Shown: in pieces, positions 17,540-23,473 of the stretch | How positions within the stretch are numbered: position 1 is the stretch's first letter | Layout: each line of letters opens with the position of its first letter | NCBI GenBank assembly: GCA_030149205.1 | Contig: JASBSB010000001.1 | Span: 270,001 to 302,000 of the forward strand | DNA length: 32,000 nt | Direction of reading: 5' to 3' | Source of the DNA: Candidatus Heimdallarchaeota archaeon | GTDB taxonomy: Archaea; Asgardarchaeota; Heimdallarchaeia; Heimdallarchaeales; Kariarchaeaceae | The notes under the pieces: generated by a model | The model's database searches: none | What the model saw: the letters and a program-made list of their open reading frames with translations, nothing else | What the model was told of the DNA's origin: nothing | Made by a program: the position numbers and the translations under genes

Positions 17540-19324
17540 TTATTGCCCCTGTCGTTTGAACCATGATTCTAACTTTGAATGAGATATCCGAATAATCGTT
17601 GGTCTACCATGAGCACATGTCCAAGGAGAATTGCACTTAAGCAAATTTGAAAGAATTTCAGCAACTTTTCGTTCACTTACAGGGTATCCAGACCTAACTG
17701 CTCCATGACAAGCCAATCGAGATACAACACGATATTCAATTGCATTAAACTTGGAAGAGATCTCAATATTCGTGTCTGCAGTTAGAAAATCGTTAATCAA
17801 TTTATGAAGACTATCTTTGTCAAGTCTTTGGTCATAATACACAGGAACTCCATGTATCAATATTGTTGAGGTTAAGTGCTGAATACTGTATTGAAATCCA
17901 AACTTTTGAAACGTGTCCTGAAGTTCAACTAAAAGATCTAGTTCTCCTGAATTGATTGATACGGAAACTGGTTTAAGGAAGGTCTGTGACATTACTAGAC
18001 TTTCTCGATGTTCTTGATATCTCTCAAATTTGACTCTCTCATCTGATGCATGAACATCCATCAACCAAAGTTCAGAGTCTTTTTCAATTAATGCGAATTT
18101 ATTAAAAATATGTCCTAAAACTCTAAAACCTCCTTGAACAAAAACCGCCCTTGTGTGGTTGACCGAATTATTTTGAGGTGTTATCTCCTCCAAAGAAGTT
18201 TGTACAAATGATTCTCCTGGAATAACCTCTTTTGTAGAAATTAAAGGTTCATAACCTTCTTGTAAATCTATTTCTGCATTAGAAACATTTGGAGCTTTCT
18301 TATGAGGTAACTGCTGTATTTCAGATTTTTCTACCAAGGTTTCTTGAACCAATGTAGAGATTTCGTGAAAAATTGGGTCATCCTCCCTAAATCTTACCTC
18401 CAGTTTCTGTGGATGTATATTATAGTCAACAAGATTGTAATCTCCCTTCAATGATAAGATTATTACAGGGTAATTGCTTTTCAATAATTGGGACCCATAA
18501 GCTCGTTCGATTTGAGTTACCAATTCTGTATTCCTAATCAATCTACCGTTTATACTTAGATACTGAAATTTTCGGTCTTTTCTTACAAGAATGGGTTTAG
18601 AGATATACCCTGTTATTTTCCAATATCCTACATTGCCTCTGATTGGTACTAATCCTGAGGTGATTTCTGGACCAAAAACATCAAACAATACTGCTAAAAG
18701 CTCTTTTCTGGTTGGACTCTCCAATACGCTTGACACTGTATTCCCCTTCCTTTCACCTACTGTGAAATGAATATCTGGGTAGGTTAAACAGAAATGTGTC
18801 ATCACAGTTAAGATGTGTCTCTTCTCTGTAGCAACTGATTTTAAAAATTTTCTCCTAGCAGGATAGTTATGAAATAATCCACTTATCTCAATTCTGGTTC
18901 CTTTGCTCATTCTTACCTGGTTTTGAGAGATAATTCGCAGATTTTCCATTATGAGCTCACTGCCAAATTCTTCTGACTCAACCTTTGATCGTATTTTGAC
19001 ACGAGAAACACTTCCAATCGATGAAAGTGCTTCTCCTCTAAACCCTAGGGTTGAAACATTATGAATATTATCTTGAGTAATTTTACTTGATGTATGAAGT
19101 TCAAATGCAAGTTTTAATTCTCCTGGCTGTATTCCTTCACCATTATCCTCAACAATCATCCTGTCAATGCCACCATTCTCCAGAATAACCGCAATTTTTG
19201 AAGCATGGGCATCAATGGAATTTTCAACCAACTCTTTTACCGCATCGGCTGGACGAGTAATTACCTCACCAGCTGCGATTTGCCTTATTATTTCTTCTGG
19301 AATTAGATGGATCTTATTTGCCAT
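17540..19324 (-). CDS. mutL: DNA mismatch repair protein MutL (endonuclease-motif type)
   Basis: IAAGEVITRP, VKELVENSIDA, DNGEGI, TLGFRGEALSSI, YNIHPQKLEVRF; CTD motifs DVHASDERVKFE, ACHGA, CAHGRP, WFKR. Start ATG 19324 has GGTGA 8 nt upstream and overlaps the mutS 3' end. Confidence 0.97.
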   Translation of the reverse strand: MANKIHLIPEEIIRQIAAGEVITRPADAVKELVENSIDAHASKIAVILENGGIDRMIVEDNGEGIQPGELKLAFELHTSSKITQDNIHNVSTLGFRGEALSSIGSVSRVKIRSKVESEEFGSELIMENLRIISQNQVRMSKGTRIEISGLFHNYPARRKFLKSVATEKRHILTVMTHFCLTYPDIHFTVGERKGNTVSSVLESPTRKELLAVLFDVFGPEITSGLVPIRGNVGYWKITGYISKPILVRKDRKFQYLSINGRLIRNTELVTQIERAYGSQLLKSNYPVIILSLKGDYNLVDYNIHPQKLEVRFREDDPIFHEISTLVQETLVEKSEIQQLPHKKAPNVSNAEIDLQEGYEPLISTKEVIPGESFVQTSLEEITPQNNSVNHTRAVFVQGGFRVLGHIFNKFALIEKDSELWLMDVHASDERVKFERYQEHRESLVMSQTFLKPVSVSINSGELDLLVELQDTFQKFGFQYSIQHLTSTILIHGVPVYYDQRLDKDSLHKLINDFLTADTNIEISSKFNAIEYRVVSRLACHGAVRSGYPVSERKVAEILSNLLKCNSPWTCAHGRPTIIRISHSKLESWFKRQGQ

Positions 19325-22067
19325 TGGGGGTTTCACCTAAGAGTGACTTCAGGTCATTTAATATTTCTAACGCTTTTAATGGTGTGATATTGTCAAGGGA
19401 AAGGTGAGATAGAGTTGCTAATATTTCGAGTTCTTCTGGTGACCTGAGTAATACATCCTTTTTATGTTTGGAAACTCTTTTCTTTTCAACTAAGGGTCGG
19501 CCTAGGCTTGATCCACCAAAAAAATCGACCAGGGATCCTTGTTTTTCCTGTTCTTCAGACACTCGTATGACCTGAGATGCAAATGATTCTGATTTTTCTG
19601 TTGGAATAACAGAGACTGATTGATTCTCCATTTGGTGCAAAAGAAATCTTGCACGAAGAATGATCTCTTTAGGTATTCCTGCTAGTTTTGCTACTTCTAC
19701 CCCAAAACTCTTGTCAGAGGAACCCTTAAAGAGAAGATGGTCAAAAATTGGTTTTTCACCATCAAAGTGTATTTGAAAATGAAAGTTCATACATCTATCT
19801 AAATACCCTTCCAAATCAGCTAATTGATGATAATGAGTGGCAATCATTGTGAGTGGACGGTTTTGGTGATTGTGGAGAAATTCTGCCAAAGACCATGCGA
19901 TTGCCAAACCATCATAAGTTGATGTCCCTCGTCCAATTTCGTCTGCAATTATTAGAGATTGTGAGGTACAATTATTCACCATATTAGCAACATCAAGCAT
20001 CTCAACAAGGAATGTGCTTTGCCCTGCGATTAGGTTATCTGAAGCTCCAATTCGGGTGAAAATTCTGTCAAATATTCCCAGTCGAGCCTTTTTAGCTGGA
20101 ACAAACATACCAATCTGAGACAATATACTGATCAATGCTAACATCCGGAGCAGTGAGCTCTTTCCACTAAAGTTTGGACCCGTGATAATGAGTAGTGTTT
20201 GCGATTTCTTATCCATGAAAATATCATTGGGTACATACCTCCCACCATCCAAAAAGGTCTCGATTATGGGATGCCTTCCCTGTTCAATATAAACTTCAGT
20301 CTTATTACTGAGCTCTGGTTTTACATAAGCATTTGTGAGTGAAATATATGAAAAAGTGGATAAAACGTCCAACTCTGATATTATCGATGACAATTCCTGT
20401 AGTCTGCTAACATGCTTTGACAAAGAGCTTAGAAGATTATTATAGAGCTCTTCCTCCAATTGGATTATTTCTATCTCAGCGTTTAATATATCATTTTCCC
20501 AATCCTTGAGTTCATCAGTAACAAATCTGACGGCATTTACCATTGCCTGTCTCCGGATATAGTTTGATGGAACATTATTTTCGTTCTTCCTTGTGACTTC
20601 GATATAGTAACCAAGTTGTCTGTTTTGTTTTATTTTTAAACTTGTAATTCCGGTTTGCTCTATTTGACTTTCCTTGTATCTCTCTATCCATTTTTCCCCT
20701 TCACTTAACACTTGAACCAGACTAGCTAATCGATCGTTAATGTTTTGATTAATGACTCTACCCTCTGATGGTGAACTTGCTGGATTATTCACGAGATATT
20801 TTTCTATCATCGTTTGAATATCTAAGCAAGTGTCAAACTTTGGCAGATAATTATCAAGACACTTGTAAGTTGTACTATGTGACTCCAGAATTTCTAATAA
20901 TTCTGGTGTCCGGCTCAAACTCATAGATAGTTGAATCAGCTCTTTGGGTTTAGCGATTCCTAAGGAGATACGTGTAGAAATCCTCTCTATATCTGCCATA
21001 TGAGTCAATAGATTACGGGTCTTATGTTGAATAATCTCTTCTTTGATAAAAAATTCCACCAATAAGTGTCTAGTCTCAATCTCTTTACTATTTAATAGTG
21101 GACTGTGAATCCATTTTCTGAGTCTACGCCCACCCATAGGAGTACAAGTTTTATCCAGCAAACCAACTAGTGTACCATATTCTGTTTTATCTTGATTATT
21201 TTCAAACAGCTCCAAACTTTTAATTGCTGTTCTGTTTAAATTCATGTGAACTTCAGGTTTAATCAGCTGAATTTTAGAGATATTAGATAACTCTCTCATC
21301 TGAGTCTCTTCAAGGTATCTGAGTAAGGCTCCTGAACTCCCAACTACCTCTGAATCAACCTTTATTCCATATCCTTCAAGTGATTTTACTTGAAAATGAG
21401 TTGTTAAAAGTTCATTTGCTTCAGTGTAATTAAACCAAAAGTCGGCACGAAGTGTTAATGTTTCATTTTCATCTAGTTTTCTACCCAACAACAACTTCAA
21501 GGAATTTTCAAGTGAATCTGGGACTAAGTACTCAACCGGTGAGTACCTATCAATGATAGTATGGAGATTTTCGAAATCATTTTCCTCCAGATTTTTAACC
21601 ATAAACTCCCCACACGATAAATCGGCTAAAGAAACACCAATTTCTTTTGTTGTCGAGTTCCAACTAAGTGAACAAATATAATTGTTTTTTCCCGAGGTCA
21701 GTAACTCCTCCTCCACAAGTGTACCACGTGTTACCACTCGAGTGATACCTCTTTTAACAACCCCCTTAACAGATTTCGGATCCTCTAGTTGGTCTGCAAT
21801 AGCAACTTTGTAGCCTTTGTTAACCAGTCTACCGATGTAAGAATCAACACTCCGAAAAGGTACCCCTGCAAGCGGATGATCACCATCCCCTAGAGACCTG
21901 GAGGTTAAGACAATATCTAACTCCTTTGAACCAACAACAGCATCCTCATAGAATAGTTCATAAAAATCCCCAACCCTGCAAAAGAGAATTACGTCTTCAC
22001 CTAGCTCTTTTTTCATCTGAACCCATTGCTTCATCATAGGTGTAGTTCCGATCTTATCGTAATCCAT
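19314..22067 (-). CDS. mutS: DNA mismatch repair protein MutS (MutS1, bacterial type) with C-terminal PIP box
   Basis: TPMMKQW, RVGDFYELFYEDA (mismatch-binding Phe-x-Glu), ITGPNFSGKSS, RIFTRIGASDNL, STFLVEM, DEIGRGTSTYDG, ATHYHQL, SFGVEVAKLAGIP; ATG 22067 preferred over TTG 22070. Confidence 0.97.
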   Translation of the reverse strand: MDYDKIGTTPMMKQWVQMKKELGEDVILFCRVGDFYELFYEDAVVGSKELDIVLTSRSLGDGDHPLAGVPFRSVDSYIGRLVNKGYKVAIADQLEDPKSVKGVVKRGITRVVTRGTLVEEELLTSGKNNYICSLSWNSTTKEIGVSLADLSCGEFMVKNLEENDFENLHTIIDRYSPVEYLVPDSLENSLKLLLGRKLDENETLTLRADFWFNYTEANELLTTHFQVKSLEGYGIKVDSEVVGSSGALLRYLEETQMRELSNISKIQLIKPEVHMNLNRTAIKSLELFENNQDKTEYGTLVGLLDKTCTPMGGRRLRKWIHSPLLNSKEIETRHLLVEFFIKEEIIQHKTRNLLTHMADIERISTRISLGIAKPKELIQLSMSLSRTPELLEILESHSTTYKCLDNYLPKFDTCLDIQTMIEKYLVNNPASSPSEGRVINQNINDRLASLVQVLSEGEKWIERYKESQIEQTGITSLKIKQNRQLGYYIEVTRKNENNVPSNYIRRQAMVNAVRFVTDELKDWENDILNAEIEIIQLEEELYNNLLSSLSKHVSRLQELSSIISELDVLSTFSYISLTNAYVKPELSNKTEVYIEQGRHPIIETFLDGGRYVPNDIFMDKKSQTLLIITGPNFSGKSSLLRMLALISILSQIGMFVPAKKARLGIFDRIFTRIGASDNLIAGQSTFLVEMLDVANMVNNCTSQSLIIADEIGRGTSTYDGLAIAWSLAEFLHNHQNRPLTMIATHYHQLADLEGYLDRCMNFHFQIHFDGEKPIFDHLLFKGSSDKSFGVEVAKLAGIPKEIILRARFLLHQMENQSVSVIPTEKSESFASQVIRVSEEQEKQGSLVDFFGGSSLGRPLVEKKRVSKHKKDVLLRSPEELEILATLSHLSLDNITPLKALEILNDLKSLLGETPNGK

Positions 22068-22130
22068 CAATAAATGAACTAGATTAGGGTGTATTTAATT
22101 AATTTCTATAGAAAATCGTTTTCTGTGAAC

Positions 22131-23066
22131 TTAAAACCATTCATCAAGTGAGAATTGACTTTCGACCTGAGCATTATTAATGAATTCAATTTCGCAACCA
22201 ATGAGTTCTTTTGTATTTAATGTGTAATAATAGTTCCCAGATTTTATGATCAACAGTGCTCCCTTAATCGCAACTATCTTCCCTCCTGCCTCTTTATTTG
22301 GTGATAGGTCAAAGTGTTGAACATAACTTGGGATCTCACCAAGATTTCCAAAATATTCCTCTAAATAAATAATATCCGGATTCTCAAATACTTTACCCTG
22401 AATGTGTTTTTCATTTTGAACCCCTTTTGCAATGGACAAAGCTTCCTCCACTAACTTTCTGAATTCATCAGAATTAAAATTTTCCAGTTTCAAGTTTGAT
22501 CTTTTCTTTTTTGATGAAACCTGTAATTTTACTGGTAATGCCCTGTTAACCTCTTGTTCCACTGCTCTTGCTTCTAGTCCGGGTAGCAGAGCAATTTTCG
22601 TGGCAACATCACTTCCCTGTTCAAGCCATCTTCTTTTTACAGAGAGTGAAACCCCTACTTTATCTATTCCAGCAATGTTTGTTACATATACTGCGGTGTT
22701 GGGAGGTGTACAAAGTTCCTTTGCCCTTGGTGATGAAGGATTACAGATGACTCCAGTACAAGTAGATCTACAGAGAAAAAAATCAGATCGAACACATAGC
22801 AAACATCTATGGTTTCTGACTGAAGGGTTTGTTTTGTAAGTTTCTGATTTTTCTGAACTGTGCATCTGGTTTTGAATACAGGATCTATATTTTCCTTTTT
22901 CTACCTCTCCCCCGATACAAAGCCCTTTGTTAAGTACTCTAATCTGGATTTCATCACCAATCTTAATTTCCTTTCGAGTTATATCTCCAGACACTGTATC
23001 AGAATAGATTAAAAAAGTTTGAACTGGGTTTGGTTGCCATTGCAGCTTAATAAACAGATAACTCAT
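22131..23066 (-). CDS. DUF2797-like protein: Cys-rich region plus GIY-YIG-like module and C-terminal PIP box
   Basis: Eight Cys in the N-half; VYVT...KVGVS...RRWLEQG...A...GLEARAVEQ; C-terminal KIVAIKGALL strand; ends QFSLDEWF*. Confidence 0.8.
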   Translation of the reverse strand: MSYLFIKLQWQPNPVQTFLIYSDTVSGDITRKEIKIGDEIQIRVLNKGLCIGGEVEKGKYRSCIQNQMHSSEKSETYKTNPSVRNHRCLLCVRSDFFLCRSTCTGVICNPSSPRAKELCTPPNTAVYVTNIAGIDKVGVSLSVKRRWLEQGSDVATKIALLPGLEARAVEQEVNRALPVKLQVSSKKKRSNLKLENFNSDEFRKLVEEALSIAKGVQNEKHIQGKVFENPDIIYLEEYFGNLGEIPSYVQHFDLSPNKEAGGKIVAIKGALLIIKSGNYYYTLNTKELIGCEIEFINNAQVESQFSLDEWF

Positions 23067-23071
23067 TTATA

Positions 23072-23473
23072 TTATCTAATTCTATCTTGACTTGTTAAAG
23101 CATTCGTTATTAGTTCTGAGAGTTCTAGATCTAGGTAAGTGTCATTAAGCTGTGCTTTAAAGGCTTCATTCACCACTGATTTATCAACATAGGGTGTTAG
23201 AGTCTCTACAAGTTGTTTTTTCACAAAATTGTTTGTTTCCACCTTCATACGATCTAAGAGGTCAGGAATTACTGATTCTAGATCTATCCAACTCAAACTT
23301 TGAACTGCCACTACTCGTACCAAGTAGTAAGTATCATTAAGCGCCAACAGTAGAGGAGGGACACACTCCTTTGTTCTTATCCTTCCAAGCCTTTGAACCG
23401 CTTTTACTCTCCTCTCCGGTGAACCATAAGACAATATCTCGATATTCTCCTGGAGTTCCTTAGAAAGAGCCAT
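23072..23473 (-). CDS. HEAT-repeat (PBS lyase-like) protein
   Basis: ERRVKAVQRLGRI..VPPLLLALND.YYLVRVVAVQSLSWI..VIPDLLD..NFVKKQLVETL; stop is 5 bp from the DUF2797 start. Confidence 0.85.
   Translation of the reverse strand: MALSKELQENIEILSYGSPERRVKAVQRLGRIRTKECVPPLLLALNDTYYLVRVVAVQSLSWIDLESVIPDLLDRMKVETNNFVKKQLVETLTPYVDKSVVNEAFKAQLNDTYLDLELSELITNALTSQDRIR

Follow-up and report, generated by a model that had tools for sequence, protein, structure and literature searches.

The 32,000-nucleotide stretch of DNA analyzed in this work, hereafter the window, comes from Candidatus Heimdallarchaeota archaeon (family Kariarchaeaceae; assembly GCA_030149205.1, contig JASBSB010000001.1, positions 270,001 to 302,000) and carries mutS, a gene for a bacterial-type MutS1 mismatch repair protein in which the octapeptide QGSLVDFF lies close to the C-terminus. 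Judging from the sequence, we consider it likely that this octapeptide is a functional PCNA-interacting protein (PIP) motif, tethering the MutS homodimer to the archaeal PCNA and coupling the search for mismatches to replication. Physical binding to PCNA and a contribution to repair are deduced from the motif sequence, its position in the protein, its conservation, its derived state, its match to the PIP motifs of the organism itself, and the presence of PCNA as the only clamp found. Canonical MutS-MutL repair devoid of MutH relies on a sliding clamp both to be recruited and to direct nicking to one strand; bacteria employ the beta-clamp and eukaryotes PCNA. In this archaeon, a repair system of bacterial design has probably been connected to a clamp of the archaeal and eukaryotic type.

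The MutS of the window presents five Pfam domains in the order MutS_I (residues 10-122), MutS_II (130-264), MutS_III (282-573), MutS_IV (444-532), and MutS_V (627-815), with E values from 1e-25 to 2e-69, all well over the cut-offs. The mismatch-binding motif GDFYELF is found at residue 34 and the Walker A motif GPNFSGKS at residue 631, and residues F36, E38, G636, K637, and S638 are unvarying in an alignment of 78 sequences. The octapeptide had been reported by an initial annotation made from the letters of the window, and translation of the minus strand confirmed that it is in frame in this five-domain protein (Table 1). It satisfies the strict PIP pattern Qxx[LIM]xx[FYW][FYW], does not match the beta-clamp pentapeptide QL[SD]LF, since the second residue of its segment QGSLV is G and the fifth is V, and ends 67 residues before the C-terminus, that is, at an internal site. 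In the AlphaFold2 model of the protein (mean predicted local distance difference test, pLDDT, of 87.8; predicted template modeling score, pTM, of 0.82), the sole long stretch with pLDDT below 50 spans residues 846-875 and the motif stands at its start, with residues 847-851 modeled as a short helical turn. The model therefore agrees with the proposal of the initial annotation that the motif belongs to a disordered C-terminal linker. The two helices of the helix-loop-helix that closes the protein (residues 878-888 and 897-910) are modeled with pLDDT of 82-87, and the TPxxAL..L..LK pattern of this end is common to bacterial MutS C-termini.

Conservation of the motif was evaluated in 30 non-redundant C-terminal tails of the family to which the window belongs (f1), whose MutS proteins are 45-57% identical overall to that of the window. 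The residue at position 7 is aromatic in all 30 tails (W in 28 and F in 2) and position 8 is F in 26/30, while Q is kept in 24/30, S in 22/30, and L in 25/30. The information content at the Q, L, W/F, and F columns amounts to 3.2-4.0 bits versus 0.6-1.5 bits in the linker downstream, such that the motif appears as a conserved island. The family consensus is Q-[TAS]-S-L-[DE]-[ND]-W-F, with QTSLD[DN]WF as the typical form, and the FF ending of the motif in the window is a minority variant within the family. Conservation in close homologues was one of the points on which the initial annotation had staked its proposal; the motif is kept in the 30 tails and the proposal is not refuted by this comparison. 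Overlap with a coding sequence or RNA on the opposite strand was ruled out as the source of conservation, because no open reading frame (ORF) of at least 80 amino acids overlaps mutS on that strand and each of the three plus-strand frames is interrupted by stops around the motif.

The closest MutS proteins bearing names are those of Heimdallarchaeota and Kariarchaeaceae, both Asgard archaea. The source genome (3.3 Mb, 93.5% complete) contains one PCNA gene (contig C2, locus L001 1486-2262), whose product of 259 amino acids has the PCNA_N and PCNA_C domains and aligns over its full length to the solved archaeal and eukaryotic PCNAs, and no DnaN beta-clamp (PF00712) was found in this 93.5% complete genome; in fact, DnaN was over the cut-off in just 2 of the 400 genomes of the phylum. 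It follows that PCNA is the only clamp usable by the MutS-MutL pair and that, unlike in bacterial MutS, the receptor of the motif must be PCNA. PCNA had also been assumed to be the host clamp in the initial annotation, and this assumption holds. NucS was not found in the source genome either.

The organism offers its own standard for what a PIP motif looks like. Twelve ORFs of the source genome have a strict PIP match at the extreme C-terminus, and the motifs of its PCNA clients include QTSLDSFFG in FEN1, QQSIDDFFG in PolB, QLDLSEFF in PolD DP2, QQTLDSFF in the large subunit of RFC (RFC-L), and QKGLEFFFG in a Hel308-like protein; a RadB-like and a zf-PARP protein are likewise among the ORFs with C-terminal strict matches. 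Their consensus is Qx[ST][LI][DE]x[FWY]F, often with a trailing G. With a weight matrix built from these seven clients, QGSLVDFF scored 13.7 bits and ranked 18 among 933,358 positions of the proteome, inside the range of 3.5-21.8 bits obtained by the true clients in a leave-one-out procedure. The family-typical QTSLDDWF reached 18.1 bits, the short forms of other Asgard MutS proteins from -1.2 to 4.6 bits, and motifs of the beta-clamp type -7.3 and -1.4 bits.

Besides serving for the matrix, the zf-PARP protein (G000 C1:14136-15065), which ends in QTFISDYF, and the RadB/Rad51-like protein (G000 C4:506423-507232), which ends in QLTLIDFFD, are candidate PCNA clients, so far undescribed, in their own right. 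Three proteins without a Pfam match are candidate clients as well, by the motif at their C-termini: one of 329 amino acids (G000 C8:323003-323992, QQALDEFFN), one of 177 (G000 C4:35703-36236, QDSLDEYF), and one of 442 (G000 C4:401584-402912, QQILHPWF). The Hel308-like helicase and PolD DP2 contain one intein each (G000 C2:211973-215215 and C8:177952-181980), and intein domains are present too in a Heimdallarchaeal MutS homologue of 1342 amino acids (P0069).

The evolutionary direction of the change was approached with the MutS1 genes of the phylum, which are present in 321 of its 400 genomes; tails were read from 50 loci of 22 families, and the non-Asgard archaeal MutS1 sampled were two haloarchaeal copies from secondary replicons. 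Two trees were built, one with FastTree and another with IQ-TREE after removing the tails (the last 110 residues were cut, which excludes the motif, crudely), and the backbone of the MutS tree had weak support. Family f1 is monophyletic (support 100), joins its sister f4 (99), and both are joined by f3 (94-98); this branching mirrors the taxonomy codes, which indicates vertical descent within the order. The 14 named bacteria fall apart from the Asgard MutS proteins, with the exception of f31, whose placement is weak. Regarding the linker, the motif follows Qxx[LI]xx[WF][FIL] in f1 and reads QPTLLEFL or QATLLDFL in f4, and in f3 it was QVTLL in genus g11 and was recognized in neither g8 nor g12. 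Families f7, f19, f20, f21, and f29 have the short form Qx[ST/x][LF]F, f6 and f28 have QLTLF, f31 has QTSLE[PS]L, and f5 has QLSLxEAL. The loci with the short Qx[ST][LF]F or QLTLF are L055-L058 (f20), L052-L054 (f19), L021, L029, and L031 (f7), L015, L018, and L027 (f28), and L047 (f6).

The outgroups of f1 plus f4 all show either a short motif or no motif, so the two-aromatic PIP represents the derived state, and among the tails read this putative PCNA-type form is specific to f1 and, in a weaker version, to f4. Both motif classes begin with Q-x-x-L, such that conversion of one into the other only needs the aromatic residues to be shifted three positions downstream; the motif most likely arose in place, when a short motif of the QxxLF type was lengthened to Qxx[LI]xx[WF]F, whose spacing suits the pocket of PCNA. 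In the comparison of archaeal MutS1 C-termini suggested by the initial annotation, the canonical two-aromatic form was found in the family itself and, weaker, in its sister, and is not general to archaeal MutS1. As for the description of this protein as an acquired bacterial MutS, the protein is of the bacterial type, but its acquisition is ancient at best, considering that most genomes of the phylum have MutS1 and that its branching within the order follows taxonomy.

Three other families, f10, f24, and f32, form a clade (support 97) with no C-terminal helix-loop-helix and ends reading QFTLDQFIKK, TILDFFLSEE, and QTILTEFD. From these sequences, the clade is a putative second and independent route to a PCNA-type motif, placed here at the C-terminal end. 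In the loci L019 (f24), L024 (f10), and L064 (f32), the PIP-like extreme C-terminus comes after a long acidic/basic tail (TILDFFLSEE, QFTLDQFIKK, and KKKKKQTILTEFD..., respectively).

The initial annotation regarded this MutS as bacterial in type and expected bacterial proteins to have a QL[SD]LF-type motif at the equivalent place, and both statements are borne out. The protein, with its five domains, linker, and helix-loop-helix, matched E. coli MutS structures with 531 bits and human MSH6, MSH2, and MSH3 with 238-278 bits in phmmer searches. Bacteria-like database matches read QL[SD]LF at the motif site, and in the named bacterial MutS proteins the equivalent slot is occupied by QLSFF in Bacillus and Parabacteroides, QMSLL in E. 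coli, QLDIF in Neisseria, QLDLF in Geosporobacter, and QMMLF in Fusobacterium. Those of B. subtilis (residues 806-810) and E. coli (812-816) are published clamp-binding motifs, and the equivalent DLPLF of C. crescentus (849-853) recruits MutS to the replisome (bioRxiv 10.1101/2020.07.13.200147). The Heimdallarchaeal protein thus shares with bacterial MutS the family, the architecture, the linker slot before the helix-loop-helix, the Q-x-x-L first half of the motif, and presumably the tethering to a replisome clamp, and differs in that its motif is three residues longer and has two aromatic residues at positions 7 and 8.

With respect to eukaryotes, the motif belongs to the same canonical Qxx[LI]xx[FY][FY] class as those of MSH6 and MSH3 and, like them, resides in a disordered region, where PIP motifs are typically found (PMC6881253). 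The human MSH6 motif, QSTLYSFF, which binds PCNA with a dissociation constant of about 3 uM (PMC6881253), is close to both QGSLVDFF and QTSLDDWF. The MSH6 and MSH3 motifs are carried on N-terminal extensions, that of human MSH6 at the very N-terminus, whereas domain I of the Heimdallarchaeal MutS begins at residue 10; none of the 50 Asgard MutS proteins sampled has a PIP-pattern match N-terminal of domain I, in line with the view of the initial annotation that the placement is unlike the eukaryotic one. Also unlike MSH2, MSH3, and MSH6, the protein is a MutS1 of the homodimer type. Hofstatter and Lahr derived the nuclear MSH proteins from Asgard MutS, with Heimdallarchaeal MutS as their sister (PMC7884376). 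By phmmer scores to human MSH structures, which are a crude proxy, the MutS of the window (238-278 bits) resembles MSH proteins no more than Firmicute MutS does (247-287 bits for Bacillus and 271-328 for Geosporobacter), and this sequence comparison neither supports nor refutes the published relation.

The archaeal C-terminal PIPs of FEN1, PolB, PolD DP2, and the large subunit of RFC follow the same consensus in the same organism; unlike them, the MutS motif is internal, and this position seems to be inherited from the bacterial layout of the protein. The MutS1 proteins of the haloarchaea Natrinema and Haladaptatus and of other Asgard archaea are also of the bacterial type, occur in PCNA-only hosts, and are encoded next to mutL, except for the Natrinema copy. 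Unlike the Heimdallarchaeal family, the Natrinema protein has no canonical PIP or motif, and that of Haladaptatus has QQVVFDI. The haloarchaeal pair branches beside Proteobacteria (support 97), suggesting that these genes were acquired separately. Both copies are located on secondary replicons (L065, Natrinema thermotolerans CP031304.1; L066, Haladaptatus pallidirubidus NZ_CP085307.1), and the Natrinema copy, which lacks an adjacent mutL, has a gene of the DUF91 family (NucS-like) downstream on the opposite strand.

We considered whether the octapeptide could be a chance match to a loose pattern within a low-complexity linker. From the composition of the genome, the strict PIP pattern is expected 7.6e-5 times per position, which amounts to about 0.07 per protein of 918 amino acids and about 0.005 in the linker of roughly 60 residues. 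Genome-wide, 89 strict matches were observed versus 70.7 expected, so that most of them are due to chance and a single match is not significant by itself. QGSLVDFF is raised above chance by four independent lines, namely its standing as a conserved island kept in all family tails while the flanks vary, its location in a slot positionally equivalent to the bacterial clamp motif, its fit to the PIP consensus of the organism, which puts it within the top 0.002% of the proteome positions on the client-derived matrix, and the absence of the pattern from anywhere in the 8 named bacterial and the 2 haloarchaeal MutS proteins searched for it. We therefore regard a fortuitous match as extremely improbable, the conservation data effectively refuting it already.

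Another explanation would be that the site is a generic clamp- or partner-binding short linear motif subject to drift, in which the short QxxLF would be sufficient for binding to PCNA and the two aromatic residues would be neutral variation. The short form is itself conserved in Asgard families whose only clamp is PCNA (4/4 in f20, 3/3 in f19, and 4/4 in f7), which implies that a motif of bacterial appearance works, or is tolerated, without a beta-clamp. Neutral variation is nevertheless unlikely in view of the constancy of the aromatic residue at position 7 and, to a lesser degree, of F at position 8 among sequences so divergent, the convergence of the family form on the organism's own PIP consensus, trailing G included, and the matrix scores, where the short forms stay far below the 13.7-18.1 bits of the motif in the family. 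The motif could also serve a partner other than PCNA, such as the C-terminal domain of MutL in the manner of the MIP-box with Mlh1, the DUF2797 protein encoded upstream, or another MutS in oligomerization, given that PIP-like motifs are promiscuous, that this one is internal and adjoins the oligomerization helix-loop-helix, and that mutS, mutL, and the DUF2797 gene are tightly linked. We find this very improbable: MIP-box peptides bind eukaryotic Mlh1 with the consensus [RK]S[HRK][YF]F, which QGSLVDFF does not fit, and bacterial MutS is known to bind its clamp through this slot. Moreover, the DUF2797 protein has the same kind of motif at its C-terminus, and a shared receptor, PCNA, fits better than mutual binding. 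Tethering to PCNA remains our preferred explanation, and several points weigh against it apart from the promiscuity just mentioned: the Q is missing in 6 of the 30 family members, genus g12 of f3 has no recognizable motif, and in most other Asgard families nothing more than QxxLF is kept. In addition, the archaeal PIPs with experimental confirmation in a curated set are all at the extreme C-terminus (PMC6881253), and the beta-clamp motif of Caulobacter MutS is reported to be critical for replisome recruitment and not for activity (bioRxiv 10.1101/2020.07.13.200147), so that tethering to the clamp may be an auxiliary function of MutS.

The gene that follows mutS encodes an endonuclease-type MutL (Table 1), and the two genes are adjacent in most Asgard loci sampled. 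The endonuclease motif DVHASDERVKFE of this MutL is kept in 7 of 8 family loci, the eighth ORF stopping at the end of the locus ahead of the motif. At 24 residues after it lies QTFLKP, and relatives have QSMLTP, QSLLSP, QQLLNP, QQFLEP, or QTLLEP at an equal spacing; motifs of this class, Qxx[LI]xP, bind the clamp in bacteria and eukaryotes. In the pathway that we propose, the linker PIP would tether MutS dimers to PCNA, either at the replication fork or on DNA that has just been replicated, and, upon recognition of a mismatch, MutS would load MutL. By way of the Qxx[LI]xP motif of MutL, PCNA would then position and activate its endonuclease, while the orientation of PCNA would supply the strand discrimination. 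Together, the two motifs would make up a MutH-less, clamp-dependent pathway of bacterial design running on PCNA. The clamp motif of MutL and clamp-dependent nicking are established in bacterial and eukaryotic systems (PMC13644597).

Directly upstream of mutS, the DUF2797-family gene is syntenic in six family loci of five genera (L003, L004, L005, L008, L009, and L010), and all six copies end in Qxx[L]DxWF followed by the stop. A more speculative idea, which we hold to be rather unlikely, is that this nuclease-like protein, MutS, and MutL would be three clamp-docking proteins assembled as a tool-belt on one homotrimeric PCNA acting on the nascent strand, and that the MutS linker PIP would represent a pre-eukaryotic form of coupling later replaced by the N-terminal PIPs of MSH6 and MSH3.

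Full-text literature searches brought up no report of an archaeal MutS1 bearing a PIP box. The study of mismatch repair in Asgard archaea does not mention PCNA or PIP (PMC7884376), and, according to a 2026 review, the removal of mispairs in archaea that have canonical mismatch repair "has not been well studied" (PMC13644597). The adaptation of MutS-MutL of bacterial design to a PCNA replisome is unaddressed in the archaeal literature found, and the motif would provide a concrete and datable step of it, in which the clamp-binding slot stays and the short motif inside it changes from the beta-clamp class to that of PCNA; intermediates and alternatives can still be seen among the sister lineages of Asgard archaea. 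The eukaryotic nuclear MSH and MLH proteins have been proposed to come from Heimdall-group archaea (PMC7884376); the motif may then be a testable handle on the coupling of mismatch repair to replication before eukaryotes, as well as an example of how a short linear motif is re-tuned once a system crosses domains of life.

Table 1. Features of the mutS region, in positions of the window.
Feature	Positions	Strand	Remarks
mutS, bacterial-type MutS1	19314..22070	minus	918 codons counted from TTG; the second codon is ATG
Candidate PIP box QGSLVDFF	19518..19541	minus	From translation, in frame in mutS; MutS residues 844-851
Low-confidence (predicted disordered) linker	19446..19535	minus	MutS residues 846-875; AlphaFold2 pLDDT <50
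C-terminal helix-loop-helix	19341..19439	minus	MutS residues 878-910; AlphaFold2 helices and TPxxAL..L..LK pattern
mutL, endonuclease-type	17540..19336	minus	Overlaps the end of mutS; Pfam HATPase_c_3, DNA_mis_repair, MutL_C
MutL endonuclease motif	18023..18058	minus	DxHAxxExxxxE; MutL residues 427-438
MutL clamp-binding-type motif QTFLKP	17969..17986	minus	Qxx[LI]xP; MutL residues 451-456
DUF2797-family gene	22131..23066	minus	Directly upstream of mutS; Pfam DUF2797 E 5.8e-10
Putative C-terminal PIP QFSLDEWF of the DUF2797 protein	22134..22157	minus	Followed by the stop
Small HEAT-repeat gene	23072..23473	minus	Upstream of the DUF2797 gene

The small HEAT-repeat gene belongs to the mutS-mutL cluster less firmly than the DUF2797 gene, as its synteny is limited to the two closest genera (L003, L004, and L005).

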